Below the pieces are notes generated by a model. It saw only the letters and a list, made by a program, of their open reading frames with translations. It was not told the origin of the DNA and did no database searches. Positions 4,333 through 29,640 of a stretch of 64,000 bases of DNA are shown here, piece by piece. The DNA is from Candidatus Oxydemutatoraceae bacterium (GTDB taxonomy: Bacteria > Pseudomonadota > Gammaproteobacteria > Poriferisulfidales > Oxydemutatoraceae). The stretch spans positions 832,001 to 896,000 of the forward strand of contig OZ244717.1 of NCBI GenBank assembly GCA_965218975.1, given 5' to 3'. Positions within the stretch are counted from its first letter, which is position 1. Each line of letters opens with the position of its first letter. The position numbers and the translations under genes are program-made.

Positions 4333-4911
4333 AGAATCCGCTTGGTCATCCAATTTCCCGCTCTCGTCCCGTATGGTTTATCGTTCCCGACAAATTGGCG
4401 TGCGTCTTACGAGTAGTGATTAAAGTGATTGCTCTTCTGTCGAAGCGATTAAAGTGATTGATTTTCTGTCGAAGCCGTGAAGAATTATGTCTAGAAATGT
4501 ATATAATTCCCTTCTCGATCTAGCTAGCCTCTCAAGCCATCATCATGATGCGATGATGATAACACTGTAGCGAATCGGTCAAATATTCTTTGAGTTGAAT
4601 CTGCTTAGTCTTTTGAAATTTTCCGGAATGCCGATATCCTCCCATATTCCGGTGTATTGTTCGCCGCTGACCCGATTTGTTTCAATCGCAGGTTTCAGCA
4701 CCTCGGTTAGCTGAAACGGCCGTTGCGATTGCGGTTCAAATAATGCTGCGCGGTAATAGCCGATTCCAGAGAAAGTCAAGCGCAAGTCCGAATGCGGATG
4801 ATTCATACAAACGGTACCATTTTTCAAATGAAAATCCCCCTGACGATGGTGAGGCGGATTAGGTACCAAAATCAGATACGCGAGGCATTGTTCGGGTAGA
4901 GTAATTGGTTT
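4333..4911. repeat. Right copy of 579-bp direct repeat (includes second IS1595-like end at 4511 and murU 3' end)
   Basis: Matches 2218-2796. Confidence 0.9.
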
Positions 4912-8098: not shown

Positions 8099-8776
8099 AT
8101 GAAACACAAAGGTTGCTTTTTTGCCGGCGTTGCTTACTTTTCATTGGTAAGTTTGATTCCGGTCGTATCGGCGACTCAAGACAGTCCGCATCCGGTCTTC
8201 GACGTTACCGAAGAAAAGTATCGTGCGCCGATTGATTTGACATCGGAATCTCTTGAAGATTTGCTCGCATTAAAAGAGTTTTATTTACGCGAAATGAAAA
8301 TTTTGATGCAGGCGGTGGAAACTAAAACCGATCAAAAAAAATTATTTGATGCGTTACTCGAATATGATCTCAAGCGGTTAGAGATTATTCAGGTCATTCC
8401 GAAAATTGTCCGAGTCTATGGCATCCGCGGCGAGCTAATGCAAAGTTTGTTCAAATACCGTGAAACCATTCAGCATATATATGATGATTATCATCCGCAG
8501 CTAGAGACACTTGAGGATTACAAAGCATACGATTTTCGTATAGGTATGGCGTATGCGTCGATGTTTGCAACGATTATGAACACCGATCATGAGCTGTATC
8601 AACGACTACGTAATGATATGACAAACAAAACGACAACTATCGGCGACTATGTAGAAAGTTTGGATCAATCATATATTAACGTTGAAAGGGTTAACTCCGA
8701 AGTCAGGGAATTTCATCTAGTGCGGCAAATTGACAAAGAATTGGAGCGAATTAATCAGGAAATAGAAGAGCGTTAA
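8099..8776 (+). CDS. Hypothetical exported helical protein
   Basis: N-terminal signal-peptide-like segment (…PVVSA); 225 aa open frame. Confidence 0.65.
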   Translation: MKHKGCFFAGVAYFSLVSLIPVVSATQDSPHPVFDVTEEKYRAPIDLTSESLEDLLALKEFYLREMKILMQAVETKTDQKKLFDALLEYDLKRLEIIQVIPKIVRVYGIRGELMQSLFKYRETIQHIYDDYHPQLETLEDYKAYDFRIGMAYASMFATIMNTDHELYQRLRNDMTNKTTTIGDYVESLDQSYINVERVNSEVREFHLVRQIDKELERINQEIEER

Positions 8777-8868
8777 TGTTTTATTTTGTAAGCGCTGCCG
8801 AACAAGTTTAAGGATATTTTCGATATCGATATCCGATCATTCGCAACAAGTAATTTTCTTTTCCGAAG

Positions 8869-8998
8869 CAACAGCGGTCGCTTGAATCAAGCGGTCGGTG
8901 TGCCGTTGCAGGCATTTCTTGTATTGTCTCCTATTCTTTGTATTTTCTTTGTGAAAATTTAACCTGTCCAACCTAATTCGGTGGCGATGTAATTAATT
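8869..8998. repeat. Decayed left copy of target duplication (ppc 3' end and terminator)
   Basis: Matches 26781-26941 with a 31-bp deletion and several substitutions. Confidence 0.88.
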
Positions 8999-9275
8999 CT
9001 TGACTTCGTAGGTTTTGGCTCGTAAGTGATTGCCCATGAGTGATTGTGCCAATTGCCCTCAGGATTCTTAGGGGCATTACATTGACAGTGTTGCTTGCGA
9101 CGCTCCCGTGCTCAGCTTCCTCCAGGACGTGACTTGCTCGGAAGCGGGAACGGAGCTTCGTCCCATTTCAGACTGACGCTACGGTAAATCCTGTTGGCGT
9201 CCGCGCTCGCGCGGCTCGGCATCGCATACCGCTCGAGCATGTCGGTACGTACCAAGATGCTCAACTGCAAGGCGT
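8999..9275 (-). pseudogene. IS1634 right end with the last ~54 transposase codons
   Basis: LQLSILV...RYAMPSRASADANRIYRS...EAPFPLP matches the C-terminus of the 36310-37986 transposase. Confidence 0.9.
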
Positions 9276-10098
9276 TGTATAGTGCCGGATACATATGGGA
9301 CTCACGGCACGATTCAAAAAGGTGACCGATATGCAATATCAACACATCAGCCACCGCATCAAAGGTTTCTATATGAGCCAATTTAGCTTCAAGAATGGAG
9401 GCTCATGAGCGCTCTAATCTTCAACAGAAATATGCTGCCCTCATTTATGGGAGGGTGTAACCCCCGAACGCATTCAAGCTCGGTCGCAGTACTTTGTACC
9501 GCTAGCGCCGACGTTATCGCCGCATTGGACTCAGTGCATTGCATGACCGCACCAAAGCGCCGTGCAAGAGGCGTCGGCGGGTCTGGCCGCAACCGATTCA
9601 GTGTGAAACCGTTTTGCGCTTGTTGCCGTGTTGTCGGCGGATTGTGCCGGATTGTCGGCGGATTGTGCCGGATTGTCGGCAAAGTGCCTGTCACCCATGA
9701 CGCGACTGGGTTCTGTCAACAAGCCCCAGCCCCGACGTCCTTGTCGGGTCGTTCACTGCTGAAAACCAATCGGTTTTCCGGGCGCGTCTCACCCATGACG
9801 CGACTGAGTTCTGTCAATGAGCGCCAGCCCCGACATCCTTGTCGAGCCGTTCACCGCTGAAAACCAATTGGTTTTCCGGGCGCGTCTCACCCATGATGAG
9901 ACTTGGTTCTGTCAATGAGCGCCAGCCCCGACGTCCTTGTCGAGTCGTTCACCGCTGAAAACCAATTGGTTTTCAGCGGTGCATCTCACCCTGCACCGCC
10001 CTCATGCCGGCAACGGACAGAATGCACCGGTCCGAATGTTGCTGCCGAATGCTTCCCCGGAAGCTCTTCAAGAATCCCATTTAGGGTGGTATCGTACA
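9276..10098 (+). repeat. Left long inverted arm / MITE-like unit (TGTATAGTGCC...GGTATCGTACA)
   Basis: Reverse-complement homologous to 26146-26687; direct copy at 47555-48374. Confidence 0.85.
9692..9990. repeat. Three tandem ~98-bp palindrome-containing units
   Basis: CACCCATGA recurs at 9692, 9790 and 9888; each unit contains GAAAACCAATYGGTTTTC. Confidence 0.88.
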
Positions 10099-10103
10099 TC
10101 TTG

Positions 10104-10133
10104 TTGACTGACATTAAACACATGTGCTAAAGT
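10104..10133 (+). promoter_or_regulatory. Candidate promoter for the giant adhesin
   Basis: TTGACT at 10104 and extended -10 TGcTAAAGT at 10125-10133; also present in the second copy near 48380. Confidence 0.35.
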
Positions 10134-10424
10134 CTGTAAAATAATTCGGATTCATAAACATTACTCATACTCATGCGAAAGCAAGGCCGATCGCACACAA
10201 AATTAAATTTGCGAACGAAATATTGGGTTCAATACCGGTGGTTCAATACCGGTGCTGATTTTTCAACATGAATGTAAGCGTGAACATAATGCCGTATATA
10301 ATGACAGTCGGCGGTGCCGAGAGTCGTTTGCAGAATGAGCGACTGCGAATGTTTTACTGCGCAAACGTCAAGCGGGCCCTTGAGCGTATTTTCGGCTTGG
10401 CGGGCATTGCGGTTTATTGACAAG

Positions 10425-13400
10425 ATGTTGAAGTTTTGTTGCTCCCGAGCGTTGCCGCGCGCGCAAAGTTTTTCCTTCGGTTTGTGTCTGTTGGCCGTAT
10501 TGATTGCTTCGGTCTATGTTGAACCTGCCCACGCTCAGACTGCGCCTGCAATCATTGACATCAATATCGTATCGCAACCGGCATTGGGAGGCACCTACCT
10601 TTTCGACGAGACGATCGAAGTGGCGCTGACGTTCGACGAGACAGTGATTGTAACCGGCGTGCCGCTGATCGAGCTGAATATCGGCGGCCCGAGCACGGCG
10701 CGTTACGTTAGCGGCAGCGGCAGGGATACGCTGATATTCGCCTATACGGTTGAGGCGGATGTCTTCGACGGTGGCGCCGGTATCAGCGTTGTGGAAAACG
10801 CGTTGGCGCAAGACGGCGATATAGACATGGGGCACCGTGGCGGGGCCGGGGTTGCCATTGTTTCTGACGATGACACCCCGATTAACCTTTCCAATTCGGC
10901 GCGGGATTTTCCCGATGTCAGAGTTGATGGTAGAGACAACCCGACACTCACCGCCATTGATATCGTATCGCAACCGGCATTGGGAGGCACCTACCTTTTC
11001 GGCGAGACGATCGAAGTGGCGCTGACGTTCGACGAGACAGTGACTGTAACCGGCGTGCCGCTGATCGAGCTGAATATCGGCGGCCCGAGAACGGCGCGTT
11101 ACGTTCGCGGCAGCGGCAACGATACGCTGATATTCGCCTATACGGTTGAGGCGGATGTCTTCGACGATGGCGACGGTATCAGCGTTGTGGAAAACACGTT
11201 GGCGCAAGACGGCGATATAAACATGGGGCACCGCGGCGGGGCCGGGGTTGCCATTGTTTCTGACGATGACACCCCGATTGACCTTTCCAATTCGGCGCGG
11301 GATTTTCCCGATGTCAGAGTTGATGGTAGAGACAACCCGACACTCACCGCCATTGATATCGTATCGCAACCGGCATCGGGGGACACCTACCTTTTCGACG
11401 AGACGATCGAAGTGGCGCTGACGTTCGACGAGACAGTGACTGTAACCGGCGTGCCGCTGATCGAGCTGAATATCGGCGGCCCGAGAACGGCGCGTTACGT
11501 TCGCGGCAGCGGCAGCGATACGCTGATATTCGCCTATACGGTTGAGGCGGATGTCTTCGACGATGGCGACGGTATCAGCGTTGTGGAAAACACGTTGGCG
11601 CAAGACGGCGATATAAACATGGGGCACCGCGGCGGGGCCGGGGTTGCCATTGTTTCTGACGATGACACCCCGATTAACCTTTCCAATTCGGCGCGGGATT
11701 TTCCCGATGTCAGAGTTGATGGTAGAGACAACCCGACACTCACCGCCATTGATATCGTATCGCAACCGGCATTGGGAGGCACCTACCTTTTCGACGAGAC
11801 GATCGAAGTGGCGCTGACGTTCGACGAGACAGTGACTGTAACCGGCGTGCCGCTGATCGAGCTGAATATCGGCGGCCCGAGCACGGCGCGTTACGTTCGC
11901 GGCAGCGGCAGCGATACGCTGATATTCGCCTATACGGTTGAGGCGGATGTCTTCGACGATGGCGACGGTATCAGCGTTGTGGAAAACACGTTGGCGCAAG
12001 ACGGCGATATAAACATGGGGCACCGCGGCGGGGCCGGGGTTGCCATTGTTTCTGACGATGACACCCCGATTGACCTTTCCAATTCGGCGCAGGATTTTCC
12101 CGATGTCAGAGTTGATGGTAGCGACAACCCGACACTATTGTTGCTCGGTTACACTGGCTTCTATGCATTGGTGGGTGACTTTTTTACTGCGGGAAGGGAA
12201 CTCGCGATGCCGTTGATAACCGGCCCGAATGCGAACGGATATTTGCTGCAGAGTGTCGAACTGCCGGTTACCCGTCCTGACGTGGCCGGCTTCTCCGATC
12301 TGACCGTTGCTTTGCGGTCTGCTTCGGAGGACGGCCCGGGCGACGTGCTTGCGACTTTTACCGCTCCGGGTGATGATGTTTCCGGCCGGCCGACGTTCAC
12401 GCTGCCCTCGAGAGCGTTCCTGCAGCCGAACACCACTTATTTTATAAGTTATCTCAATAATAGCACCGCTACTTTCAACTTTTTCGCTGCTCAAATAGGT
12501 GACCTGGAAACCGGATCGTTCGAATGGATCAGCGCTATCTCACCAAATTGTGGAGCCAATGACCCCACTATTACCCTATGCTTGTATATACGCGATATGC
12601 CAAGTGCTCCGTGGGGGGGGGCTCCTTTAATAACGGGGGTTCCCGCGGAATACTTCGGAGCGCTTATCACCCGTACCGAAGTTCGAATCATCGATATCGT
12701 ATCGCAACCGGCATCGGGGGACACCTACCTTTTCGACGAGACGATTGAAGTGGCGCTGACGTTTGACGAGACAGTGACTGTAACCGGCGTGCCGCTGATC
12801 GAGCTGAATATCGGCGGCCCGAGCACGGCGCGTTACGTTAGCGGCAGCGGCAGCGATACGCTGATATTCGCCTATACGGTTGAGGCGGATGTCTTCGACG
12901 GTGGCGCCGGTATCAGCGTTGTGGAAAACGCGTTGGCGCAAGACGGCGATATAGACATGGGGCACCGCGGCGGGGCCGGGGTTGCCATTGTTTCTGACGA
13001 TGACACCCCGATTAACCTTTCCAATTCGGCGCGGAATTTCCCCGATGTCTTTGTGGACGGCAGGCTCCTTTGCGCCCGCACACTACAGGTTCGAGAAGCG
13101 ATTCTCAACGCGCTTCCCGGTGTAACCGATTGCGCGGCGATAACCGATGCCGATCTGAACTCTATCATTGAGCTGGATCTGGCCGAAATGGAAATTACCG
13201 CCCTAAAGGTGAGGGACTTTGCCGGACTCGCAGCTATGACGACGCTGAATCTAAGCTTGAATGAACTATCGAGTTTGCCTGCCGGTGTGTTCAATGGTCT
13301 CGTTGCTCTTACAGCGTTAAATTTGAATAATAACCAACTGTCGGACTTATCTGCCGGAATATTTAATTTTCTTCCGACTTCACTGACGGAGTTAACTTTG

Positions 13401-16400
13401 CACGAGAATGAATTGTCGCCTGCAGCGTTCCCCGATGGTGTATTTGAACGCTTCAGGTCGCTTAGATCAATTACTTTGTTCGGCAATCCCGGAAGCGATT
13501 CCTTCAGGCCATTGGCAAATGCCGGGCCTGAGCGGACAGTTAGAGTTGGCGAAACGGTTACGTTGGATGGTATTGCTACCGACGGCGGTCCGTTCGGGAC
13601 TAACCTTATCTTCGCATGGTTGCAAGCCGAAGAGGATGCTATACCGATTACATTGACCGGTGCGGATACCGCTACACCTACGTTCATTGTGCCGACGGAC
13701 GCGCCGGTCGGGAGCGTTTTCCGGTTTGATCTGAGAGTGACCGGTAGGGGCGAATATCGTGCAAGCGCCCAAGCTCCGGCGGAGCACCTTACCACCTACG
13801 ACCGAACGACAGTGACGGTTACGATACTCGCGCCGACGGGTCTGTCAGCGACAGCGGGTCATAAACGGGTAATACTCGAATGGATGACGGGCGACGGCGG
13901 CGGCAGCGCGATCACGCACTATCAATATCGGCAGAAAGCAGACGGTGAGGATTTCAGTGGATGGATGAATATTCCGGACGGCGATGATGCCGACAGCGAC
14001 GCCGGCAACGAGACGAGTTATACGGTTACCGGTCTGACGAACGGCACGAGCTACCTCTTCCAAGTGCGTGCGGTGAATGCTCTTGGCGCGCACAGCGAGG
14101 CCACGGCTGAGGTTGGTGCGAGACCGTTCTTGATTGAAATCGCTACTGGTGATTTGGCTATTACGGATTTTTATGCCGGCCCTTTTTCTGGCCTTCTGGA
14201 TATTACACCAAACGAGCAGGTGATTGCGCGTCCGGTGTTCGTCTTTGTCGGGTTTATCGGTGGCGTCCGGATGAGTGGTATTGAGCCAGATGAGATCGAA
14301 ATTGGGAACGGTGAGATTTTGCTGGTGAGAGTCGGTGACGAATGCGGCTTCGCCACCCCGGTCCCAGATAACGTTATCTGTATAGAGATACTCCCGACCG
14401 GGCCGAATGGTTCTCAGCTTACGATGAGTCTTCCTGCCGATGTTGCCGATCTAGGCAATGCCGCGGCGCCGGATTTCTATCGCCGGGAAATCGTTCGTTC
14501 GGACGGTATCATGGCAGAGGCCGTCTCAATGCCTGACGGTCCGATTCTCACATCGGAGCCGTTCGTAGTTACTTTTACTTTCAGCGGCGACGGAATATTA
14601 ATAGGAATAAGAGGGGCTGCGGCGGATAATGTTCCGTTCCCTTTGGAGGATTACTTGGAGCCTGAGGAAATTGAGGTAGTTTATAGTCCCCCTGCACCGT
14701 CCGGTGGTACTTTTATTCGTCTTGAGGTTTCCAATTCCAGTGCTAGTATGGGACATACTAATATTGATATTACCCTTCGGGCAAGGCAGCGCTATGAGGG
14801 TGTGCTGACTGTAATTTTACCTGCCGGCTCGGCTCGCAACATTTATGGGGATTCCTTACCTGAGACAAGTTTCTCAATCGAAGTCGACACTTTCCACCCG
14901 ATTGGCATTGTTGCGTCTTCAACTTTTGTGGTGGAAGGTACGACAGCAGTATTTACACTGATGCGAGACGGTCTAATAGATAGAGAGACGGAAGTAACGG
15001 TAGAAGTAACCGAGACGAACGAAATGGTGGCCGCTGCGGATGAAGGAAGGAAGAGTGTAGCATTCGCTGCGGGCTCAAGCACGGCAATATTTTCAGTTCC
15101 GACTGTTGAGGATATTTCGGATGAAGACGACAGTGTGGTTACGGTTCGAGTGAACGAGGTTGGTTCTGATTATGTAGTAGATATGACACAAAACATTGCT
15201 ACGGTGACGATACGAGACAACGATGCTGTGCCCGATGCACCGGCGGACTTAGCAGCCGCGGCGGGCGATACGTACGCGGTCCTAAGTTGGGATGCGCCTG
15301 CCGACCCCGGCGCTTCGCCGATTGAGCGTTACGAATATCGCGCGAGTAGCGACGCCGGAACGGTTTGGAATCCGGATTGGACCGACGCCGGCGATGCGAC
15401 GAGCGGAGTTAGGACTCAAGTCGTATCAAACTTAACTAACGATACGGAATACACATTTGAAGTGCGTGCGGTCAGCGCAATAGGCAACGGCACGACCGCG
15501 CAAGTCACGGCGACACCGAGCTCCGCGACGGCGGTATTCATCCTGATGTTTAACCCGACCGAATATACGGTCAATGAAAGCGAAGGGCGGGTTGAACTCA
15601 CGCTCAGACTGACCGGCGTCGGGCGTGCGCCGCAGGATAAAGTGACCGTTACTGTCTCGACACGCGACGGCAGCGCGGTCACTCCTCAGAAGTATGCGGC
15701 TATTAATAATGCGACGATTGTCTTTGAACCCGAAGAGGGCGTGACCGAGTTAACGCAAACGGTGACGGTTCAGATTGTCAATGACATCGTTTTGACCCCC
15801 GATGATCAGAGCTTTTCGGTGGTTATTACGGATGGAACGGCGGCGCATTCCGACGATACGGTCGTGATTGATCGGGGTCGCAGCGAAGCGACGGTGACTA
15901 TCTTCGATGACGGTGTAGGTCCTAGGTGGGATTATACGCAGGAATTGCCTAGTACCGTTAATGAAAGCACGGCCATGAATACGGTTTCAATCCGGTTGGG
16001 TCAGGGAGAAGGGCTTTTCGATGGGATTTATACAATTATGCTTGAGGTGGGGGGAACGGCGACGTTCGGGGAGGATTATATAATAGAGTTTGTCAGCGGG
16101 AGGAATGTAGGATCGAGAACGCTGCCGTTCACGAAAGGCGACCGTTTGATGCGACCGATTGAGTTCATGGATGGGCGTGATGATGAGAGTGGTATACATA
16201 TACGAGAGTTAAGGTTGCGCTTAGTGGTGACGGATGACACGGTGTATGAAGCGGATGAGACGATTGAGTTGCGCTTAACTACGAGCCACCCGGCCGCTAC
16301 GGTAAGCGACGATACGACGCAGACAATCACGCTCATCGACAACGATACGACGCCGGTATTGTCTCTATCGGTCGGTGCGATTGTTATCGACGAAGGGGCA

Positions 16401-22400: not shown

Positions 22401-25400
22401 GATACGCTTGAAGAAGACGACAGCACGGTGACGGTTACCGTCATAGGCGGTATGGATTATGCGGTCGGTATTGAGAACAGTGCTTCGGTGCGTGTTGTCG
22501 ACGACGACGTCAACGTGGCACCGGCATTCATCAGTGCAGCAAGTTTTGAGGTCAACGAAGGGCAGACAGTAGTCGGCACAGTGACGGCTGAGGATGCGAA
22601 CATAGAGGACGAAGTGACGTATTTGATTACCGGTGACGGTGCAGATGATGCCTTGTTTGATATTGACTCGTCTTCGGGCGAACTGAGCTTCACAACCGCA
22701 CCGGACTATGAGAATCCGGTGGATGCGGATGAAGACAATAACTACATGCTCACGGTGACGGCGAGCGGCGGCACGGACGCTCGGGCGTTGACGACGACGC
22801 AAGCGATTACGGTGGCGGTGCTTGATGTGGCTACGACGATTACGATTACGGCGGCAGAGCCGATGGTAACGGAAGGCGAGCCGGCGGTGTTCGTGTTTGA
22901 GGGGACCGACGCGTCGGATTTGTTTGTGTTCTTTACGGTAGTTGAGTCCGGCGAGGTGCTTGTGGCTCCAACGCCTTCTGGTATTTCTTTTGGACCTGCT
23001 TCCGAGACAGTGATGCTCAGCGTTGCCACCATTGATGATACGCTTGAAGAAGACGACAGCACGGTGACGGTTACCATTGGTGTCGACGATATGGGTTTTT
23101 ATGAAGTCGGTATTGAGAACAGTGCTTCGGTGCGTGTTGTCGACAACGACGTCAACGTGGCGCCGGTATTCACCAGTGCAGCAAGTTTTGAGGTCAACGA
23201 AGGGGAGACGGTAGTCGGCACGGTGACGGCTGCGGATGCGAACATAGAAGACGAAGTGACGTATTCGATTACCAACGGTGCGGATGATGCCCTGTTTGAC
23301 ATTAACCCGTCTTCGGGCGAGTTGAGTTTCGCCATCGCACCGGACGTTGAGGCGGATAAGGTTTATATGCTCACGGTGACGGCGACCGGCGGCACGGACG
23401 CTCGGGCATTGACAACAACGCAAGAGATTGAGGTGACGGTGCTGGATGTGCCGACTACAATTACGATTACGGCGGACGAGGCAGAGGTCATAGAAGGCGA
23501 ACCGGCGATGCTTACACTCAGCCGGACAGACGCGACGGATGCGCCGGCATTGACAGTGAACATTACGGTAGATGCGACCGTCGGAGTGCTTGCGGATGCG
23601 GCGCCTGAAATGGTGACTTTTGACGCCGGTTCTGCGACAACGATGCTCAGCCTTGCCACCGTCATTGATGATACGTTCGGTGTCAGAACGGTGACGGTTA
23701 CCGTGAACGACGGTGTGGATTATGAGGTCGGTATTGAGAATAGCGCCGAGGTGCGGGTGGTTGACAAGGATGTCGTGCCCGGTGCGCCGGCGAATTTGGC
23801 AGCCGAGGCGGGCGACACACAGGCGGTCCTAAGTTGGGACGTACCTGCCGATTCCGGCACTGCGCCGATCGACCGCTACGAATATCGCGTGAGTGCCGAC
23901 GGCGGGAATATTTGGGATCCGGACTGGACGGCCGCCGGTGATGCGACGAGCGAAGTCGGAACTCAAATCGTATCGAACTTAGTCAACGGCACGGAATACA
24001 CATTTGAAGTGCGTGCGGTCAGTGCGGCGGGCAACAGCGCAGCCGCACGCATCACGGCAACACCGATAGTTGATGATACAGGGGCTAGCCTAACTTTACG
24101 CCGCATAGGCGACAAAAATGGCTATGATTTGATTGCCGATGTGCTCGCAAACGCCGAGGTGTCGGCAGACGGCAGTTTTGAAGTGGCGGTAGGTTCCGAC
24201 ATCGTATCGTGCACCGGTTGTGATAGCTTGGAAGCGTTTACAGCCTGCGAGGATACAAGCCAATTATGCCCGCTTAAATTTGATGATGAAAACCGGCGGC
24301 TATTTTTGCAGCAATTGGGCTTTACCGCAGTGATTTGGCGTGCGAAAGATGCAAACGGTAATATTTTCACCGGCGGTGCGGAAATTACGGATTATGACAT
24401 TGACGGCAGTTTGGAAGGTGTCGCATTTGCTCAACTATTTTATGTCGCACCGATTGTAGGTCTTGCGAATCGGAGTCAATATATCCCTCAAGACAGCAGT
24501 TCGACGATTACGATTGAGATTGATGTCCGGTCTGCCGAACTCGAACTCGAACTCGAACTTGGGCTTGAGGCAGAAGACTTTTCTGTAGAAGGAACATTGC
24601 CTCCTTGGACTTTCACTTCTATGCCTCTAGCTGTAATAGCGGATGGCGCTGCGTTAGAAGATGGCAATAGCGCGACAATCAGGCTGCTTGAGAACGACCT
24701 GAGTATGGATAGCGAAATGCCGGGTCTCCCGACGCTGTCTAATCCGGGAAGCGAAACTGATATTATGGTGGTCTATAACGATCCTTCCACACGTTTTTAT
24801 ACTGTAACTCGTAGTTTATTTATAGTTCGCGAACTTGACGTGCCGGCTTCATTCGGATTCAGGGTTCCGTTTAGAGTATTGGCTCTGGTCGATAATGAGG
24901 AAAGACGTTATGTGAAAGTGTCGGAGTTGGCTGATCAGGGCTTAACGTTCAAATCAACTCCGGCGGAGACCGGTGTACTCGTACGAGGCGAGTGGACGGT
25001 TAACATCATTGACGACTTGACGAATCCCGAGAGCGAGGCCTTTGAGATTCCGGCCTGTCCGGACGACACCACCGAGTGTTCGGTTATGGGTAATTTTACC
25101 CCGACGGAAGAAACTCCTCTGGTTATAAGAGGTGTCTTTGCCGGCGCCGGTTTTGATGCGAATAGTAGTGAGAGATTGACGACGACAATAACACAAACAA
25201 TATACGTCAATATAGTTGATGATCAATTATTGCCGGATAGGATAGACGATCTGGACGTTGACGGAGTTCGAGATGTCTATGCGGCTGGTGATGATAGCGC
25301 GATGAGCAATGTGAAGTTTAACAGAGATAATAGAGAGTTTCTTTATGCCGGAGATGAGACGGAGAACGATAGAGGGTTGACTTTAATTATTACCACAGGG

Positions 25401-26069
25401 GACGGTAAAGATGGCGAGGAGGACGGTTCAGCCATTCAAAAACCCGCTGTAGGTCTATTTTCAGTGGTAATAAGGTCGGTGACGGAAAATGCAATGCCGC
25501 ATTGGTCTGCGCTGATTGCCGAGAGCGAGGAGGATGCCGAAATAATAGGGATTGGCACACCACCGGCCTACGCAGGCAGCGGTGTCTATGATTTTGAAGT
25601 AATTTTTGATGTGGATAACTTTGACTTGCAAGCGCGGGTGGTTATTCCGCAACGTGAACCTATAGTCGAAGGCTCGGTCTATTACGAATATATCAATGGC
25701 GATTGGTGGGAGATTGATATGTCCGAAGCCGATCGTACCTATTCGGCGCCGAGGACTTCAGACAATCCTTGCCCAAGTCCCGATGCTATAGCGTATTGGA
25801 CGCCGGGTCTCAATGCGGGCCATCGCTGTGTGCTGCTGGAGGTCACAGATGGCGGGTTGAATGATGCCGATAGTGAAGCAAACGGCATTGTTGCAAATAC
25901 GGGTGCGATCGGCGGTAGCAGTGTCGTCGTCGATAGACGGCGCGGCGGCGGCGGTGCGGTCGGCTTGTGGTGGCTGCTTCTGTTCGTCGGTATCATTTTG
26001 GCGGCGATGGTCTTGAAACGCCGGAATGCAAGACCGACGCGGCGGATTTCACTTCAAAGTTTGCGCTAA
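10425..26069 (+). CDS. Giant repetitive surface adhesin (Ig-like repeats, LRR, PKD-like, FN3, Calx-beta, cadherin; GlyGly-CTERM)
   Basis: ORF 10314-26069; probable start MLKFCC with signal peptide ending PAHA; LRR (LNLSLNELSSLPAGVFNGL); cadherin (APDFENPTD); C-terminus GGGGAVGLWWLLL...KRR. Confidence 0.9.
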   Translation: MLKFCCSRALPRAQSFSFGLCLLAVLIASVYVEPAHAQTAPAIIDINIVSQPALGGTYLFDETIEVALTFDETVIVTGVPLIELNIGGPSTARYVSGSGRDTLIFAYTVEADVFDGGAGISVVENALAQDGDIDMGHRGGAGVAIVSDDDTPINLSNSARDFPDVRVDGRDNPTLTAIDIVSQPALGGTYLFGETIEVALTFDETVTVTGVPLIELNIGGPRTARYVRGSGNDTLIFAYTVEADVFDDGDGISVVENTLAQDGDINMGHRGGAGVAIVSDDDTPIDLSNSARDFPDVRVDGRDNPTLTAIDIVSQPASGDTYLFDETIEVALTFDETVTVTGVPLIELNIGGPRTARYVRGSGSDTLIFAYTVEADVFDDGDGISVVENTLAQDGDINMGHRGGAGVAIVSDDDTPINLSNSARDFPDVRVDGRDNPTLTAIDIVSQPALGGTYLFDETIEVALTFDETVTVTGVPLIELNIGGPSTARYVRGSGSDTLIFAYTVEADVFDDGDGISVVENTLAQDGDINMGHRGGAGVAIVSDDDTPIDLSNSAQDFPDVRVDGSDNPTLLLLGYTGFYALVGDFFTAGRELAMPLITGPNANGYLLQSVELPVTRPDVAGFSDLTVALRSASEDGPGDVLATFTAPGDDVSGRPTFTLPSRAFLQPNTTYFISYLNNSTATFNFFAAQIGDLETGSFEWISAISPNCGANDPTITLCLYIRDMPSAPWGGAPLITGVPAEYFGALITRTEVRIIDIVSQPASGDTYLFDETIEVALTFDETVTVTGVPLIELNIGGPSTARYVSGSGSDTLIFAYTVEADVFDGGAGISVVENALAQDGDIDMGHRGGAGVAIVSDDDTPINLSNSARNFPDVFVDGRLLCARTLQVREAILNALPGVTDCAAITDADLNSIIELDLAEMEITALKVRDFAGLAAMTTLNLSLNELSSLPAGVFNGLVALTALNLNNNQLSDLSAGIFNFLPTSLTELTLHENELSPAAFPDGVFERFRSLRSITLFGNPGSDSFRPLANAGPERTVRVGETVTLDGIATDGGPFGTNLIFAWLQAEEDAIPITLTGADTATPTFIVPTDAPVGSVFRFDLRVTGRGEYRASAQAPAEHLTTYDRTTVTVTILAPTGLSATAGHKRVILEWMTGDGGGSAITHYQYRQKADGEDFSGWMNIPDGDDADSDAGNETSYTVTGLTNGTSYLFQVRAVNALGAHSEATAEVGARPFLIEIATGDLAITDFYAGPFSGLLDITPNEQVIARPVFVFVGFIGGVRMSGIEPDEIEIGNGEILLVRVGDECGFATPVPDNVICIEILPTGPNGSQLTMSLPADVADLGNAAAPDFYRREIVRSDGIMAEAVSMPDGPILTSEPFVVTFTFSGDGILIGIRGAAADNVPFPLEDYLEPEEIEVVYSPPAPSGGTFIRLEVSNSSASMGHTNIDITLRARQRYEGVLTVILPAGSARNIYGDSLPETSFSIEVDTFHPIGIVASSTFVVEGTTAVFTLMRDGLIDRETEVTVEVTETNEMVAAADEGRKSVAFAAGSSTAIFSVPTVEDISDEDDSVVTVRVNEVGSDYVVDMTQNIATVTIRDNDAVPDAPADLAAAAGDTYAVLSWDAPADPGASPIERYEYRASSDAGTVWNPDWTDAGDATSGVRTQVVSNLTNDTEYTFEVRAVSAIGNGTTAQVTATPSSATAVFILMFNPTEYTVNESEGRVELTLRLTGVGRAPQDKVTVTVSTRDGSAVTPQKYAAINNATIVFEPEEGVTELTQTVTVQIVNDIVLTPDDQSFSVVITDGTAAHSDDTVVIDRGRSEATVTIFDDGVGPRWDYTQELPSTVNESTAMNTVSIRLGQGEGLFDGIYTIMLEVGGTATFGEDYIIEFVSGRNVGSRTLPFTKGDRLMRPIEFMDGRDDESGIHIRELRLRLVVTDDTVYEADETIELRLTTSHPAATVSDDTTQTITLIDNDTTPVLSLSVGAIVIDEGASVDITVMTTATGSVYAEDQTITLEFTGDAMPEDDYTVSVDGSPLSSPYELTLPAGASSVTATITATEDTEIEADETITLTARHEGDTIGEETIMITDNDADVVTYTVSFDPTEYTVNESDGQVELTLTLIDEGRDPRGVVSVAVVTRGNSALGSLDYVTVPSNNPNLVEFNPGDVRLMSVIQILDDAILETEEIFEVLIFSVSAEHSDDEVVIGLGQDEATVTIVDDDAELNAAPVFTSSLSFEVNEGQTVVGMVTAEDANIEDEVMYSITGDADDVLFAIDPSSGELSFAAAPDFENPTDADMNNNYMLTVAAIGGTNVRALTTTQAITVTVLDVPTTITITADEAEVTEGESAVFVFERTDATDAPALTVNITVDATVGVLADAAPEMVTFDAGSATAELSLATDDDTLEEDDSVVTVTIIDDVGYRIGIENSASVRVVDDDVNVAPVFSSSESFEVNEGQTVVGTVTAEDANPQDEVMYSVTGGVDEALFTIDSSSGELSFTTAPDYENPMDADMNNNYMLTVTASGGTDARALTTTQAITVTVLDVVTTITITADEAEVIEGESAVFVFERTDATDAPVLAVNITVDDPDGVLAATAPEMVTFDAGSATAELSLATDDDTLEEDDSVVTVTIIDDVGYRIGIENSASVRVVDNDAVPGAPAELAAAAGDTHAVLSWDAPADPGTSPINHYEYRASSDAGTVWDPDWTSAGDATSEVRTQIVTDLTNDTEYTFEVRAVSAAGNGAAAQVTATPSSATAVFILTFDPSEYMVNESEGRVELTLRLTGVGRAPQDAVTVTFSARDGSAIAFEDYSGQQVENAEVVFSSANAQLSETLNIPIVDDIVFEPDDESFSVVIDNVSAAHSDDTVVIDRGRSEATVTIVDDGLAPIWNLQELPSIVNESTAMDTVSIILQNEGEALVEFYTIMLEVGGTATFGEDYIIEFVNAFILTGGSATIIPLTEGELLMRPIEIRDGPTISLGVLSFRLVVTDDTVYEADETIELRLSVTGHPAATVSDDTTQTITLIDNDTTPVLSLSSLSVGATEINEGASTDVVVEITNESVYAEDQTIALEFTGDAMPEDDYTVSVDGSPLPSPYELTLPAGASSVTATITATDDTEIEVDETITITARHEGDTIGEETITITSNDADVATFTVSFDPAEYTVNESDGQVELTLTLIGEGRGPQDDVTVTFSARDGSAVTFEDYVGQQVENAEVVFSSANAQLSATLNIPIVDDIVFEPDDEVFSVVIDDVTAAHSDDTAMIDQGEATVTIVDNDDEPELVLSVDMTAIDEGASVAIRIEITSEELTTESVFAEDQTITLEFDGTATEDDYTVSVDGSPHELILKAEEFEASATIMALIDDMTAEGNETIMITARHEGEMIGEETITIIDNVAPVFSGEVIFEIEEGLTMVGTMTAEDANPQDEVRYSVTGDGADDALFDIDPSSGELSFTTAPDYENPMDADTDNVYMLIVTAVGGTDVRALTTTQAITVTVLDVVTTITITADEAEVTEGESAVFVFERTDATDAPVLAVNITVDDPDGVLAAAAPEMVTFDAGSATAELSLATDDDTLEEDDSTVTVTIIDDVGYRIGIENSASVRVVDDDVNVAPAFTSAASFEVNEGQTVVGTVTAEDANIEDEVTYSITGGADDALFDIDSSSGELSFTTAPDFENPTDADMNNNYMLTVTASGGTDARALTTTQAITVTVLDVATTITITADEAEVIEGESAVFVFERTDATDAPVLAVNITVDDPDGVLAATAPEMVTFDAGSATAELSLATDDDTLEEDDSVVTVTIIDGADYRIGIENSASVRVVDDDVNVAPAFISAASFEVNEGETVVDTVTAADANIEDEVMYSVTGGADDALFDIDSSSGELSFTTAPDYENPTDVDTDNVYMLIVAAIGGTDVRALTTTQAITVTVLDVVTTITITADEAEITEGESAVFVFERTDATDAPVLAVNITVDDSGGVLAAAAPEMVTFDAGSATTELSLATDDDTLEEDDSTVTVTVIGGMDYAVGIENSASVRVVDDDVNVAPAFISAASFEVNEGQTVVGTVTAEDANIEDEVTYLITGDGADDALFDIDSSSGELSFTTAPDYENPVDADEDNNYMLTVTASGGTDARALTTTQAITVAVLDVATTITITAAEPMVTEGEPAVFVFEGTDASDLFVFFTVVESGEVLVAPTPSGISFGPASETVMLSVATIDDTLEEDDSTVTVTIGVDDMGFYEVGIENSASVRVVDNDVNVAPVFTSAASFEVNEGETVVGTVTAADANIEDEVTYSITNGADDALFDINPSSGELSFAIAPDVEADKVYMLTVTATGGTDARALTTTQEIEVTVLDVPTTITITADEAEVIEGEPAMLTLSRTDATDAPALTVNITVDATVGVLADAAPEMVTFDAGSATTMLSLATVIDDTFGVRTVTVTVNDGVDYEVGIENSAEVRVVDKDVVPGAPANLAAEAGDTQAVLSWDVPADSGTAPIDRYEYRVSADGGNIWDPDWTAAGDATSEVGTQIVSNLVNGTEYTFEVRAVSAAGNSAAARITATPIVDDTGASLTLRRIGDKNGYDLIADVLANAEVSADGSFEVAVGSDIVSCTGCDSLEAFTACEDTSQLCPLKFDDENRRLFLQQLGFTAVIWRAKDANGNIFTGGAEITDYDIDGSLEGVAFAQLFYVAPIVGLANRSQYIPQDSSSTITIEIDVRSAELELELELGLEAEDFSVEGTLPPWTFTSMPLAVIADGAALEDGNSATIRLLENDLSMDSEMPGLPTLSNPGSETDIMVVYNDPSTRFYTVTRSLFIVRELDVPASFGFRVPFRVLALVDNEERRYVKVSELADQGLTFKSTPAETGVLVRGEWTVNIIDDLTNPESEAFEIPACPDDTTECSVMGNFTPTEETPLVIRGVFAGAGFDANSSERLTTTITQTIYVNIVDDQLLPDRIDDLDVDGVRDVYAAGDDSAMSNVKFNRDNREFLYAGDETENDRGLTLIITTGDGKDGEEDGSAIQKPAVGLFSVVIRSVTENAMPHWSALIAESEEDAEIIGIGTPPAYAGSGVYDFEVIFDVDNFDLQARVVIPQREPIVEGSVYYEYINGDWWEIDMSEADRTYSAPRTSDNPCPSPDAIAYWTPGLNAGHRCVLLEVTDGGLNDADSEANGIVANTGAIGGSSVVVDRRRGGGGAVGLWWLLLFVGIILAAMVLKRRNARPTRRISLQSLR
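10564..12136 (+). repeat. Four near-identical 396-bp (132 aa) coding tandem repeats; fifth copy at 12694-13049
   Basis: ATATCGTATCGCAACCGGCAT recurs at 10564, 10960, 11356, 11752 and 12694. Confidence 0.95.
17095..23770 (+). repeat. ~642-bp cadherin plus Calx-beta-like repeat units in two clusters, separated by a second FN3/Calx-beta block
   Basis: The N(V/A)AP.F motif recurs with about 642-bp period (two units from about 17095, five from about 20584). Confidence 0.85.
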
Positions 26070-26145
26070 AGCTGATCTGCCCGGTATGTATTTGATGCCG
26101 GTTTAAGTCGGATACAATACTCCCGCAGCGAGTGTACGATGCCAC

Positions 26146-26687
26146 TGTACGATGGCACCCTAAATAGGATTCTTGAAGCGCTTCCAGAGAAGCGTTCGGC
26201 AGTAACATTCGGATCAGTGCTTTCTGTCCGTTGGCGGCATGAGGGCGGTGCAAAGGGTGAGACGCGCCCGGAAAACCGATCGGTTTTCAGCGACGAACGA
26301 CCCGACAAGGACGTCGGGACCGGGCCGGGGTTCATTCATAGAACCAAGTCTCGTCATGAACGACAAACACTGTGCCGACAACCCGTCGGCGCCTCTTGCG
26401 CGGCGCTTTGCCGCGATCATGCAATGCACTGAGTCCAATGCGGCGATAATGTCGGCACCGGCGGTACAAAGTACTGCGACCGACCTTGAATGCGTTAGGA
26501 GGTTACACCCTCCCAAAATGAGGACAGCATATTTCTGTCGAGGCTTAGAGCGCTCGTGAACCTCCATTTTGTTGGCTAAATTGGTTCATATAGAAACCTT
26601 TGATGCGGTGGCCAATGTGTTGATATTGCATATCGGTCACCTTTTTGAGTTAAGCTGTGAGTCCCCATGTGTATACGGCACTATACA
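26146..26687 (-). repeat. Right long inverted arm / MITE-like unit
   Basis: TGTACGATGGCACCC...CGGCACTATACA; inverted homolog of 9276-10098 with only one 98-bp unit. Confidence 0.85.
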
Positions 26688-26783
26688 CTCTAGGACACTA
26701 CAACGGTTTTTTGGCGGAAGTTGGGTAACCCTATGAAAAATAAAGGATTTATTTCTCAATCTAGACAAAACCTACGAAGTCAA
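26688..26783 (-). mobile_element. Diverged IS1634 left end
   Basis: Reverse complement TTGACTTCGTAGGTTTTG...AAATAAATCCTTTATT..TCATAGGGTTACCC matches 2798 onward; the terminal base is missing. Confidence 0.88.
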
Positions 26784-26813
26784 CAGCGGTCGCTTGAATC
26801 AGGCGACCGCTGT
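26783..26813 (-). terminator. Hairpin downstream of ppc
   Basis: ACAGCGGTCGC-9 nt-GCGACCGCTGT 11-bp stem; weak U tract. Confidence 0.55.
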
Positions 26814-26901
26814 GCCGTTGCAGGCATTTCTTGTATTAAATGAGAGCATTATTTTTTTCACCATAATTGTCTCCTATTCTTTGTATTTTCTTTGTGAAAA
26901 T

Positions 26902-29640
26902 TTAACCTGTCCAACCTAATCCGGTGGCGATGCAATTAATTGACAACAATAGCGCAACCAGTTTTTTTTGATAGACTTCTTCCTGATCGGGGCTTAAACT
27001 GCGGAACTCTTCTACCAATTTAACTTGTTCCATACCTGCCTGATCCACAACAGCCTTACGTCGTTGCAAGTAGCGCAAAAAGTATGGGAATCTTTCGCAT
27101 AGCGTTTTTTCCCCAGTGATTTTCAGCAGCATTTCAATACTCAATAAATACTCTTCTCGGATTAGTTCGAAGATTGTATCTCGGATGGTTCGATCCGTTA
27201 CCAGACCGGCGTATGCGCGGGCAATTTCAAGATTGACTTGCAATAGATTTCTTTCCACTTCATTGACGATTAATGCAAGCGGAGGATAGCACTGTGACAT
27301 TTTAATTAGCAAGGGTAATTCTTTTTGTTCAACCATATACCGAACCGCAGCGCCAAAACCAAACCAACCCGGCACCATCATACGATTTTGCGACCATGCA
27401 AACACCCATGGAATGGCGCGTAAGTCGTCTAGAGATTGACTGTTTGAACGGCGTGCGGGACGTGAACCGATTTTTAGCAGTTTCAACTCTTCGATGGGGC
27501 TTGCCTGCCGATAAAATTCAACCAACCCTTTCTGTGCCGCCAATTTTCGATATCTCGCGTATGACGTCTGTGCCATTGTTTCCATTATTGCGCGGTAGGA
27601 ATCGGGATATGTATCGTCGCTGTTAAACTCTGTCAGTAGGACTTGTTTGAGTGTGCCGACGCATAAGGCTTCCAGATGATATTCTGCGGTACCGCGGTTG
27701 GCATATTTCGCGGATACGACTTCGCCTTGTTCGGTCACGCGCATTTTTTTGGTGATCGTTAGAGGAGGTTGCGCCAAAACCGCTTCATCAATCGGAGCGC
27801 CGCCGCGACTACTAGACCCGCCGCGACCATGAAAAAATGACACATGGATTCCGAGTTCTTTTCCGCTATCGTGTAGCTTGGATTGCGCTTTATTCAACTC
27901 CCAGTTGGAGCAGAAAAATCCCCCGTCTTTATTAGAATCCGAATAGCCGATCATGATTTCTTGGAGGTGATTATTTGTAGCAATCGTGCGTTTTACGACG
28001 GCACATTCGAATACTTCCTTTAAAGTGCTCGGTCCGCGGCGCAAATCGCCGATTGTTTCTAACAGCGGAACAATCAGGATATTGCAATGTTTATTATGAT
28101 TCTTGCCGGAAAACAATCCGGCAAATTTTGCTAACAGGTACGCATTAAGCCAATCGGCGCTTGATTGCGTCATGCTTAAAATGAAATGATTAATTTCACG
28201 ATCGCGCAGGGTACGCTTTGTATTACCAATGGTATAAAAAGTATTTAAGGTCTCGGTTGTCGGTTCCGACAATGTCGGCCATTCAGGCAATCGTTCCCAT
28301 GGAGCATCGATTTGTTCAATCAACCATTGTCGGTACGCGTTCACGTCGGAAGGTAGTTGTTGTTTAGTTTTTTCCAGCAACTCATGCAACGTGTCGTTAA
28401 TGCGTTGTGAATGTTCTCTAAAATCAATCCCAAACGTATGAAATCCGAAACTCTTAGATTTTTTAATCAGTTGTAAAACATCATAGTAAGCGATTTCCTC
28501 AGCACCTATGTCGCACAAGCAACGATAAATCACTTCTAATTCATCGCAGAAATCATCAATGTGACTATACTGCGGAGTACCCCGACTGTGCCAGGTGTGT
28601 TCTAGTTTATCCAACATGCATTTTAAGTACTGCCGAAATAGCTCACCGGGATTACGCGCTTGGATTTCTTCTTGTTGCTTGGTTTCGGCAAATAGTTTGT
28701 TTAATTCCGACTTAAAATAATCCGGCACTTTGACGGCATGTTCGGCAATGCTGAAGTGGGAAAGCAGCGTTCGAAGCTCGCGGTACAGGTGTGTAAACGC
28801 GGCAGTGCGCGCGGTTTGTAAGGCTTTGGCTGAGATATCCGCGGTTACAAAAGGGTTCCCGTCACGGTCCCCTCCGATCCACGAACCGAATTGCAAGCGC
28901 GGAAGTTGAGTACCGGTGCGATGTTCAGGATAAAATTTGCCAAGCGCTGTATCTAGACGTAGATGTAGCGTGTTTATTGCATCAAATATCGAACTTTCGA
29001 AAAAATATAATCCCCAAGCAATTTCATCCTCGACTGATGGTTTTTCCCGACGAATTTCGCCGGTCATCCATAACAAATCTATTTCTCCGTACAGTTGCAC
29101 AATCAGTTTATTACGCTCGTTCGGAGTCCAACGTTCTAACTCCAACTGTTTTAGCAACAGGTAAATGCGGCGATGTATCTTAAGTACCGTGATACGCTTT
29201 GCTTCGGTCGGATGAGCGGTAATGACGGGTTCAATATATAGTTGTTCGAGATTTTTACGAATATTGGTATATGGAATGCCTAACTTTTTTGTTTCGCATA
29301 ACAGTTGCGCAAAAGTGTTGTCGTTATATTCGGTTCCCAAATAGGTTTCAATTTCACGTCGCCGTCGGATGGAAGTGTTTTCTTCAAGAATGTTGATTAA
29401 TTGAAACCAAATGCTCCGTGCCTGCATCGTGTACAGTAACTCCTGATCGTCGGCGGGGCGTTTTTCTCCTTCGAATAAAGGTCTGATTTCAGGGTGTCGT
29501 TTGTCGATAATACGTAGGAGTAAATCCTTAAATAATTGTTTTAGATTTTCAGCGTATCTGTAAGCATATTCCCGAATTTCCTCAATATCCGAACCTTGAG
29601 CAGGTGGCGCTGCCGGTTCGAAATGAGGAAACTTTTGCAT
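26902..29640 (-). CDS. ppc: Phosphoenolpyruvate carboxylase
   Basis: TAHPTE, GGDRDGNP, GYSDSNKDGG, FHGRGG and LRAIPWVFAW motifs. Confidence 0.97.
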   Translation of the reverse strand: MQKFPHFEPAAPPAQGSDIEEIREYAYRYAENLKQLFKDLLLRIIDKRHPEIRPLFEGEKRPADDQELLYTMQARSIWFQLINILEENTSIRRRREIETYLGTEYNDNTFAQLLCETKKLGIPYTNIRKNLEQLYIEPVITAHPTEAKRITVLKIHRRIYLLLKQLELERWTPNERNKLIVQLYGEIDLLWMTGEIRREKPSVEDEIAWGLYFFESSIFDAINTLHLRLDTALGKFYPEHRTGTQLPRLQFGSWIGGDRDGNPFVTADISAKALQTARTAAFTHLYRELRTLLSHFSIAEHAVKVPDYFKSELNKLFAETKQQEEIQARNPGELFRQYLKCMLDKLEHTWHSRGTPQYSHIDDFCDELEVIYRCLCDIGAEEIAYYDVLQLIKKSKSFGFHTFGIDFREHSQRINDTLHELLEKTKQQLPSDVNAYRQWLIEQIDAPWERLPEWPTLSEPTTETLNTFYTIGNTKRTLRDREINHFILSMTQSSADWLNAYLLAKFAGLFSGKNHNKHCNILIVPLLETIGDLRRGPSTLKEVFECAVVKRTIATNNHLQEIMIGYSDSNKDGGFFCSNWELNKAQSKLHDSGKELGIHVSFFHGRGGSSSRGGAPIDEAVLAQPPLTITKKMRVTEQGEVVSAKYANRGTAEYHLEALCVGTLKQVLLTEFNSDDTYPDSYRAIMETMAQTSYARYRKLAAQKGLVEFYRQASPIEELKLLKIGSRPARRSNSQSLDDLRAIPWVFAWSQNRMMVPGWFGFGAAVRYMVEQKELPLLIKMSQCYPPLALIVNEVERNLLQVNLEIARAYAGLVTDRTIRDTIFELIREEYLLSIEMLLKITGEKTLCERFPYFLRYLQRRKAVVDQAGMEQVKLVEEFRSLSPDQEEVYQKKLVALLLSINCIATGLGWTG

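Follow-up and report, generated by a model that had tools for sequence, protein, structure and literature searches.

Tn5 and Tn10 are composite transposons with inverted IS arms, known mobile insertion cassettes are generally a few kb long, and IS481 of Bordetella has the target NCTAGN. The mobile insertion cassette is represented by MIC231 of Bacillus cereus, which derives from IS231 of the IS4 family; PMC3913671 defines the class and describes trans-mobilisation of MIC231A1 and a qnrD cassette of 1.5 kb, and PMC2266710 refers to the original cassette papers. The latter source gives target duplications in IS1634/IS1549 as long and variable (8-514 bp) and those of most IS1634-family members as 5-6 bp. 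An earlier note on this DNA knew of no named element with the architecture described below, but the mobile insertion cassette (MIC231, PMC3913671) does match it. Our preferred reading of the ppc locus, held to be about as likely as not, is a three-layer nested relic assembled in place, rather than a demonstrated mobile unit.

At this locus, in the window (the whole stretch of 64,000 nucleotides that was analysed), a giant adhesin gene and two decayed IS481-like copies are enclosed by the ends of an old IS1634-type IS, and the bracketed span is 17,785 bp. The right-end stub (8999-9275, minus strand) corresponds to IS positions 1651-1911, including the last transposase codons, and the left-end stub (26688-26783, minus strand) to positions 1 to about 97, stopping just at the upstream border of the presumed transposase promoter. 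Both stubs retain 18-bp terminal inverted repeats that are intact and identical to those of full IS1634 copies, and the minus orientation that the stubs share is the correct relative one for a single IS. BLAST finds no IS1634 homology between 9276 and 26687, a span that holds the adhesin gene and two IS481-like remnants; positions ~98-1650 are missing, and of the transposase gene just the last codons are left. Judging from the sequence, the two pieces belong to a single IS1634-family element, as its right and left ends, and its transposase body is gone. The earlier note had proposed the same, and positions 1-97 and 1651-1911 bear it out; the features that it listed all exist, within 1-3 bp of the coordinates that it gave.

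A direct repeat abuts both IS tips (8869-8998 and 26781-26941; BLAST E 1e-36) and occurs in no third place in the 2.08-Mb genome. Its copies are identical in 124 of 130 alignment columns and differ by one 31-bp indel. Since two bases also belong to the IS tip, the repeat itself spans about 8872-8998 (~127 bp) and 26784-26941 (158 bp). The left copy lacks 31 bp of the right one and has a degenerate hairpin; in the right copy the 10-bp hairpin is perfect, and this copy extends over the final 40 bp of ppc (phosphoenolpyruvate carboxylase; 26902-29640, minus strand), the gene that is conserved on the right of the insertion. Of the six substitutions, four lie in the hairpin half that is broken in the left copy while the right copy keeps it perfect. 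The repeat fits the long target duplication of an IS1634-type IS, as had been supposed. Exact repeats of 24-619 bp abut both ends in eight of 14 evaluated full copies (there are 15 in all), long and variable like the duplications that PMC2266710 gives for IS1634/IS1549 and that the earlier note took as established.

One full-length copy in the window (36173-38083, plus strand) has its transposase frame open and is flanked by an exact target duplication of 68 bp; the transposase at 36283-37986 scores 339.7 bits against NF033559 (IS1634 family, cut-off 100). At another (window 2798-4332) the repeat is perfect over 543 bp and begins 36 bp beyond the right end of the copy. A stop-free transposase frame of at least 574 aa is present in 10 of the 15 full copies, with termini identical to those of the ppc-locus stubs, and thus an intact cognate transposase with the same inverted repeat is indeed available in trans, as the earlier note expected. 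The sub-lineage to which the ppc-locus ends belong has no surviving full copy in the genome.

The long inverted arms were originally taken to belong to the element. The left arm (9276-10098, 823 bp, plus strand) is a decayed IS481-like element made of a left inverted repeat with an A module (9276-9582), a linker (9583-9690), three 98-bp B units (9691-9990) and a C module with the right inverted repeat (9992-10098). The right arm (26146-26687, 542 bp, minus strand), equally decayed, consists of C, one B unit and A, with its left inverted repeat outward. The arms are mutually inverted and their A modules are 88% identical, no closer than many dispersed copies; genome-wide, BLAST gives 85 matches for A, 321 for B and 94 for C, and the termini are sharp at 37 A ends and 82 C ends (82 complete ends genome-wide). 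Part of the A module, A(41-98), matches the end of an IS of 1081 bp in one relative (G002) at 86-90% identity. The ORF of that IS is of IS481 type (best family IS481 at 179 bits, below the NCBIfam cut-off of 224) and matches both arms by tblastn over residues 7-105 (E 2e-7 to 3e-5). In the ten best remnants no frame longer than 209 aa is free of stops. An exact 5-bp duplication is kept by six of 31 complete IS481-like elements and absent from 25. Neither arm has one of its own, which fits recombinant copies, and no 5-bp repeat flanks the pair (9271-9275 versus 26688-26692). The arms are two members of a dispersed, apparently IS481-derived repeat family and not features of the IS1634-bounded element. 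An Rfam search of 8700-10400 gave nothing above threshold, and two sub-threshold miRNA-like matches there were rejected.

The members of this family share an insertion geometry. Downstream of the 82 C ends there is a TTG at +6 to +8 and a TAnAAT at +29 to +34, and 24 of the 82 pass a strict promoter test, against 0.5 expected. This pattern indicates that the IS481-like family inserts 5 bp upstream of putative promoter -35 boxes; the literature searched yielded no report of such fixed insertion. At the left arm the right inverted repeat has the family geometry on the predicted adhesin promoter (10104-10133, plus strand; TTGACT, 18 nt, TAAAGT, with TG before the -10), which starts 6 nt past the arm. 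At the right arm the left inverted repeat adjoins the IS1634 stretch just before TTGTTT-17-TATCAT. This presumed transposase promoter has eight of 12 consensus positions and is absent from the promoter-scan output; an arm lying there accounts for a left-end stub of 96 bp. A different IS481-like subfamily cuts another left-end stub, at genome position 2073079, no more than ~5 nt from this IS position. The left junction (IS position 1651 against the left inverted repeat of the arm) is not at a promoter-like IS site: entry at such a site was considered and rejected, as no TTG/TAnnnT pattern lies past position 1651, and the mechanism can be given no more specifically than as non-canonical insertion or recombination. 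We regard a promoter-homing IS481-like family, with the promoter of another IS among its targets, as the more unusual result; it would offer a case in which promoter-directed transposition in bacteria can be tested.

The cargo gene (10314-26069, plus strand; 15.8 kb, a 5251-aa frame) encodes a giant surface adhesin-like protein with Cadherin, Calx-beta, fn3 and LRR domains, a signal-peptide-like N-terminus and, behind a weak match to choice-of-anchor U, a hydrophobic anchor at the C-terminus. Adhesin genes at different loci have blocks in common that are 94-97% identical, and ORFs of at least 1900 aa total ~170 kb of the 2.08-Mb genome. Many contig joints fall inside adhesin repeats and suggest repeat-number variation or graph artefacts. 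Two IS1634 fragments of the same orientation, along with IS481-like remnants, flank a 5899-aa gene at genome 1364455-1382154.

How could the three layers have come together? First, an IS1634 element of the old sub-lineage would have inserted downstream of ppc and duplicated ~130-160 bp of target. Promoter-homing IS481-family elements would then have entered it, one of them at the upstream edge of its transposase promoter, leaving the 96-bp stub. Finally, recombination among dispersed IS481-like copies and the mosaic adhesin family would have exchanged the 1.55-kb IS1634 interior for an adhesin gene that brought along its promoter and an IS481-like element upstream; the 25 IS481-like elements without a duplication and the blocks shared between adhesin loci speak for such recombination. 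We infer this order of events and the recombination steps, whereas the data directly show the anatomy, the family assignments, the habit of the IS in making target duplications, the geometry of IS481-like insertions, the gene order kept in relatives and the change point in divergence. Because the terminal repeats are intact, the duplication abuts them and ten transposase frames are open, transposition of the whole unit has to be weighed against the relic. It would have been a 17.8-kb non-autonomous cassette, assembled elsewhere and inserted downstream of ppc by a transposase acting in trans, with a sister insertion at 47279 that later lost its right part; we consider these two parts together rather unlikely. 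The fuller version is in our view unlikely: that a giant mobile insertion cassette was created when a promoter-homing IS481 cut the left end from the transposase gene, is trans-mobilised by the resident IS1634, and has moved at least once between the ppc and pmbA sites.

The locus at 47279 is where these accounts differ most. A second right-end stub (47279-47554, minus strand) with the same inner breakpoint is followed by a second left-arm copy (47555-48374, plus strand; A, three B units, C), the same promoter region and adhesin-2 (48610-56223, plus strand; 2537 aa), a mosaic, 3'-truncated paralogue that ends within an fn3 repeat region without a C-terminal anchor. The IS/arm junction (47554/47555) is the one seen at ppc and the left flank differs, as the earlier note had seen, and homology begins exactly at the IS tip. 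Both adhesin loci are, by comparison with related genera, insertions: the convergent neighbours are conserved, acs/ppc in both relatives examined and pmbA/DUF3108 in two of three (20 relatives are listed, none of the same genus). A start of homology at the exact IS tip, together with insertion at both loci, would also be explained by movement of the unit followed by truncation, and the anchorless end of adhesin-2 is what a right-side deletion would leave.

From the same copy the earlier note argued that the unit had moved as a whole, and this we cannot follow. Downstream of adhesin-2 we found no left IS end, inverted arm or target duplication; a repeat of 47127-47278 was sought there, and only a diverged IS481-like remnant appeared (~56423-56663, plus orientation). 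The two loci differ at 24 of 190 positions in the outer stub and at 15 of 502 further in (12.6% falling to 3.0%; Fisher p 7e-6). The maximum-likelihood change point, at 9188 (support interval 9177-9240), lies within the IS stub, as IS-mediated homologous recombination predicts. The two right-end stubs and a third (ISR1, ISR2 and 278497) form a trio without resolved order, in which the outer parts of ISR1 and ISR2 are no closer to each other than to the third; given this divergence, any move of the unit must be old and followed by gene conversion. Dating is ambiguous: with both repeat copies neutral, the direct-repeat divergence (4.6%) departs from that of the outer stub (p 0.018), and constraint on the right copy is needed to reconcile them. 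The 47279 copy would fit an unequal recombination event in which two IS copies took part. In the nested-relic account that copy would stem from homologous recombination (unequal crossing-over or gene conversion) with one end inside a second, independently inserted IS1634 stub. What is seen here corresponds to the segmental duplication that the earlier note had named as the opposing explanation. Moreover, it had looked to another copy with both IS ends and its own duplication, but none of the 25 IS1634 loci in the genome is such a second complete unit, and the lack of a surviving full copy of the sub-lineage further weakens the cassette.

An improbable alternative is a composite transposon, in which two directly oriented IS1634 copies moved the adhesin by their outer ends and lost their inner parts to IS481-like ends. 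The 5899-aa gene, with its two same-orientation IS1634 fragments and IS481-like remnants, speaks for it, and Mycoplasma mycoides PG1 is reported to have large repeated segments with IS copies at their flanks (PMC1798306). However, it needs two separate deletions, each ending exactly at an IS481-like left inverted repeat; since the two stubs are non-overlapping parts of one IS, a single IS is simpler.

The left junction region is present in five sequencing runs, and in the four whose contigs were compared all contigs break at repeats; none bridges 8998/8999 or 26783/26784, which says nothing on an empty site or a circle, and none of the 15 listed joints (of 49) links the two direct-repeat copies. 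Misjoined repeats, with the adhesin not truly between the IS ends, might be suspected in so repeat-dense a region with neither junction bridged, but are very improbable indeed, given a single 2.08-Mb contig of 99.4% completeness and three runs whose flanking contigs are without differences and end in the direct repeat on both sides (left 8838, 8977, 8952; right 26891), as a true two-copy repeat gives in short-read graphs, an agreement that is weak support because the runs may be the source sample. The metagenome contigs scanned hold no match to the IS/arm junction or to the direct-repeat core, and the genome contigs scanned none to the C-end 23-mer (own-genome records may have been excluded).

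Read as a relic, the locus is still an example of how a small 2.08-Mb genome is reshaped by two IS families and a mosaic family of adhesin genes. If the unit is mobile, giant surface protein genes can travel on IS ends, and 17.8 kb would to our knowledge be by far the largest transposase-less IS cassette. If the cassette reading is true, giant adhesin genes are transposable cargo, a whole 5251-aa gene with its promoter.

Like MIC231, the ppc-locus unit has two IS terminal repeats around transposase-less cargo, a flanking target duplication and a cognate transposase in trans. It differs in size (17.8 kb against 1.5 kb for the qnrD cassette), in its cargo, a giant adhesin gene with remnants of another IS family on both sides, and in its IS1634-family ends with a ~130-160 bp duplication and no second complete copy. 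With IS1634/IS1549 it has in common the family DDE transposase (in the full copies here) and the long variable duplications, whereas the ppc-locus element itself is without positions ~98-1650 and the transposase gene. Cargo between inverted copies of one IS family, with the left inverted repeats outward, recalls composites of the Tn5/Tn10 type, but the arms are decayed, no 5-bp duplication surrounds the pair, and their identity is that of dispersed copies. With the IS481 family the arms appear to share rve-type transposase gene remnants, TGT-type inverted termini and a short target duplication; unlike it, they carry internal 98-bp tandem arrays, the related ORF falls under the family cut-off, and the elements here appear to insert at a constant distance of 5 bp before -35 hexamers.

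The earlier note described the segment at 8869-26941 accurately: the direct repeat, the IS ends, the arms and the adhesin frame were all recovered, in a window that covers positions 832001-896000 of a single source contig of 2.081 Mb (47.7% G+C). The direct repeat has two copies, 8869-8998 and 26781-26941, and BLAST finds no further site in the genome; they align with 124/130 columns identical and one 31-bp indel. Just inside them lie a right-end stub (8999-9275) and a left-end stub (26688-26783) of an IS1634-family element, which bracket 17,785 bp; the 18-bp termini of both stubs are identical to those of full copies. The frame between them (10314-26069, 5251 aa) carries Cadherin, Calx-beta, fn3 and LRR domains; its N-terminus resembles a signal peptide, and its C-terminal anchor is hydrophobic.

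The transposase gene at 36283-37986, in a full copy of the IS (36173-38083), belongs to the IS1634 family (NF033559, 339.7 bits, cut-off 100). The genome holds 15 full-length copies, 7 right-end stubs, 2 left-end stubs and 2 internal pieces, and 10 of the 15 full copies retain a stop-free transposase frame of at least 574 aa. Exact direct repeats of 24, 31, 35, 68, 117, 323, 433 and 619 bp adjoin both ends in 8 of the 14 full copies that could be evaluated, the copy at 884 being too close to the contig start. Such long repeats agree with the 8-514 bp given for IS1634 and IS1549 in the excerpted text of PMC2266710, and hence we regard an old target duplication as the best reading of the direct repeat around the adhesin segment. 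In the right copy of this repeat the 10-bp hairpin is still perfect and the last 40 bp of ppc are retained; in the left copy the hairpin carries 4 changes, and 31 bp are deleted. Elsewhere in the window, an IS1634 copy at 2798-4332 has an internal deletion of ~360 bp and lies between the copies (2254-2796 and 4369-4911) of a perfect 543-bp direct repeat, with a 36-bp spacer at the right end.

Gene order in relatives marks both adhesin loci as insertions. The nearest genomes that could be compared belong to other genera (PEP carboxylase 55-57% identical). In both of the two examined at the first site, acs and ppc are adjacent and convergent, separated by 112 bp in G004 and by 3.4 kb in G008; at the second, pmbA adjoins the DUF3108 gene in two genomes out of three (G004 and G012); no downstream gene of the pmbA locus was found within the 13 kb examined in G008. 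A second, distant PEP carboxylase gene is present at genome 1016920-1019520, 32% identical to the gene at 26902-29640, and several relatives also have two.

The arms, of 823 and 542 bp, are not confined to the element. They are copies of a dispersed modular repeat, made of a 307-bp A module, tandem 98-bp B units and a 107-bp C module, which give 85, 321 and 94 BLAST matches genome-wide in ~100 clusters. Sharp termini against unrelated flanks occur at 37 A ends and 82 C ends. Other genera of the family also carry the first 100 bp of A, which in the relative G002 form the end of a 1081-bp IS, present there in 9 full copies, 96-100% alike, and 1 interrupted copy. The 357-aa ORF of that IS has IS481 as its best family, at 179 bits, below the cut-off of 224, and in tblastn it matches A-B-C elements throughout the present genome, both arms included. 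No stop-free frame longer than 209 aa was found among the ten best IS481-like remnants. The shared IS end, the tblastn matches and the missing long frame suggest that the arms are decayed IS481-family elements; they are inverted to each other, with their left inverted repeats outward. The B-unit arrays of these remnants (e.g. 9691-9990) consist of 1 to ~12 units of 98 bp with a hairpin in each. A diverged remnant on the plus strand lies at 56423-56663, between the truncated end of the second adhesin gene and the DUF3108 gene, and four related sequences, 72-74% identical to it, are present at other genome positions.

These IS481-like elements have a fixed relation to promoter-like sites. After the 82 complete C ends there are five variable bases, then TTG at +6 to +8 (57, 43 and 43 of 82) and TAnAAT at +29 to +34 (44, 43, -, 42, 46 and 46 of 82, the dash standing for n), so that the right end is followed after exactly 5 nt by a -35-like TTG and after 28 nt by TAnAAT, always in the same orientation. 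A strict promoter test was passed by 24/82 C ends; the expectation for random genome positions is 0.5, and no set among 200 exceeded 4. An exact 5-bp duplication, corresponding to the five bases immediately upstream of the -35, is kept in 6/31 complete elements (chance 6e-13) and absent in the other 25/31. The geometry is also seen in G002 (loci L023 and L027-L037), where 8/10 complete, live copies have exact 5-bp duplications and 6/10 have, by eye, TTGnnn directly behind the duplication; the older fragments there are much less clean (~4/17, by eye). Taken together, the positions of these ends point to a family that may home to promoter edges, and the literature searched contained no report of homing of this kind.

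At the adhesin segment, the left arm (9276-10098, plus strand) ends 5 nt ahead of the adhesin promoter-like site TTGACT-18-TAAAGT (10104-10133). The left inverted repeat of the right arm (26146-26687, minus strand) adjoins IS1634 sequence just ahead of TTGTTT-17-TATCAT, before the transposase start; this site agrees with the consensus at 8/12 positions only and is absent from the promoter scanner's list. The position of the right arm at the edge of the presumed IS1634 transposase promoter explains the 96-bp length of the left stub. A different IS481-like subfamily has cut the other left-end stub (genome 2073079-2073173), no more than ~5 nt from the equivalent IS position. It seems that one IS family inactivates another by homing to the promoter of its transposase gene. 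In IS coordinates, the cuts of both left-end stubs (26687/26688 and genome 2073070-2073173) fall at ~97-100, ahead of the presumed transposase promoter. No promoter-like site is present at the left junction (IS position 1651 / A position 1), and both arms lack a 5-bp duplication of their own. On each arm, then, one flank is canonical and the other is not, a pattern that recombination between dispersed copies would be expected to give.

The second locus is homologous to the first from the IS tip (47277) to 49223. Downstream of its adhesin gene (48610-56223), neither a left IS end nor an inverted arm is present, and the left flank is not repeated. Divergence between the two copies is uneven: 9.7% in the IS right-end stub, 3.6% in A, 0.9% in the linker, 9.0% in the B units, 1.9% in C, 1.4% in the promoter region and 2.4% at the adhesin 5' end. 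By maximum likelihood the divergence changes at 9188 (24/190 before vs 15/502 after, Fisher p 7e-6); the 2-lnL support interval, 9177-9240, falls within the stub and leaves out the junction at 9275. The outer 190 bp of the two stubs are 87.4% alike, a third stub (278497) is 90.0% and 88.4% identical to them, and the three form an unresolved clade without a full-length member. On the simplest account, two IS copies that had inserted independently, both on the minus strand and 38 kb apart, gave rise to the second locus by unequal crossing-over or gene conversion, after which deletion and further conversion would have followed.

Recombination is also evident among the giant genes. The first adhesin gene shares its last 1.9 kb, at 97.2% identity, with the 3' end of a 19,547-aa gene; the second is a mosaic, 94.3% identical over 49783-51898 to genome 719371-721471 in a 7842-aa gene, and its frame stops inside an fn3 region without an anchor. 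Common blocks of 94-98% identity thus indicate a mosaic family evolving by recombination. Giant frames in the genome have 19,547, 9,153, 7,842, 5,899, 5,251, 2,537, 2,518, 1,989 and 1,926 aa, ~170 kb in total, at loci including genome 928235-986878, 1811645-1839106, 714859-738387 and 1364455-1382154. Three giant genes have an IS1634 right tip (genome 738614, 1364244 and 1074700) ~14-230 bp beyond their 3' ends, and at two of these loci 2.7 kb comprising gene end and IS stub are co-duplicated at 94% identity. Within the first adhesin gene (10500-26000), contigs from four public sequencing runs (X1, X2, X4 and X5) have many joints between repeat units, some skipping 396-7631 bp and others stepping back ~3.1 kb, which are either population variation in repeat number or assembly-graph artefacts.

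We consider it about an even chance that nested insertion and recombination built the locus where it now stands. The earlier note took the copy at 47279 as an argument that the whole unit had moved; the defining evidence for such movement was sought and was not found. Neither the IS/arm junction nor the direct-repeat core has a match in metagenome contigs. An old move of the unit followed by conversion would leave the same divergence pattern at the second locus, and dating cannot tell the two histories apart: the 4.6% divergence of the direct repeat is compatible with the old age of the outer stubs only if the right repeat copy is constrained. That the locus transposed as a unit at least once is, in our opinion, rather unlikely. 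A two-IS composite is more doubtful still; the stubs, both on the minus strand, correspond to positions 1651-1911 (right) and 1 to ~97 (left) of one 1911-bp IS. An assembly artefact is hardly credible. Four runs containing the region are contig sets broken at repeats, none of which spans a junction; their flank contigs agree without differences and end inside the direct repeat on both sides, and the runs are possibly the source sample.

The C-end 23-mer has no match in genome contigs, a set from which the records of this genome may be left out. The kind of architecture is already known. Mobile insertion cassettes are defined, in the excerpted text of PMC3913671, as elements with IS ends and a target duplication that lack a transposase gene and have a transposase available to them in trans, and the architecture of the 17,785-bp segment fits that definition.
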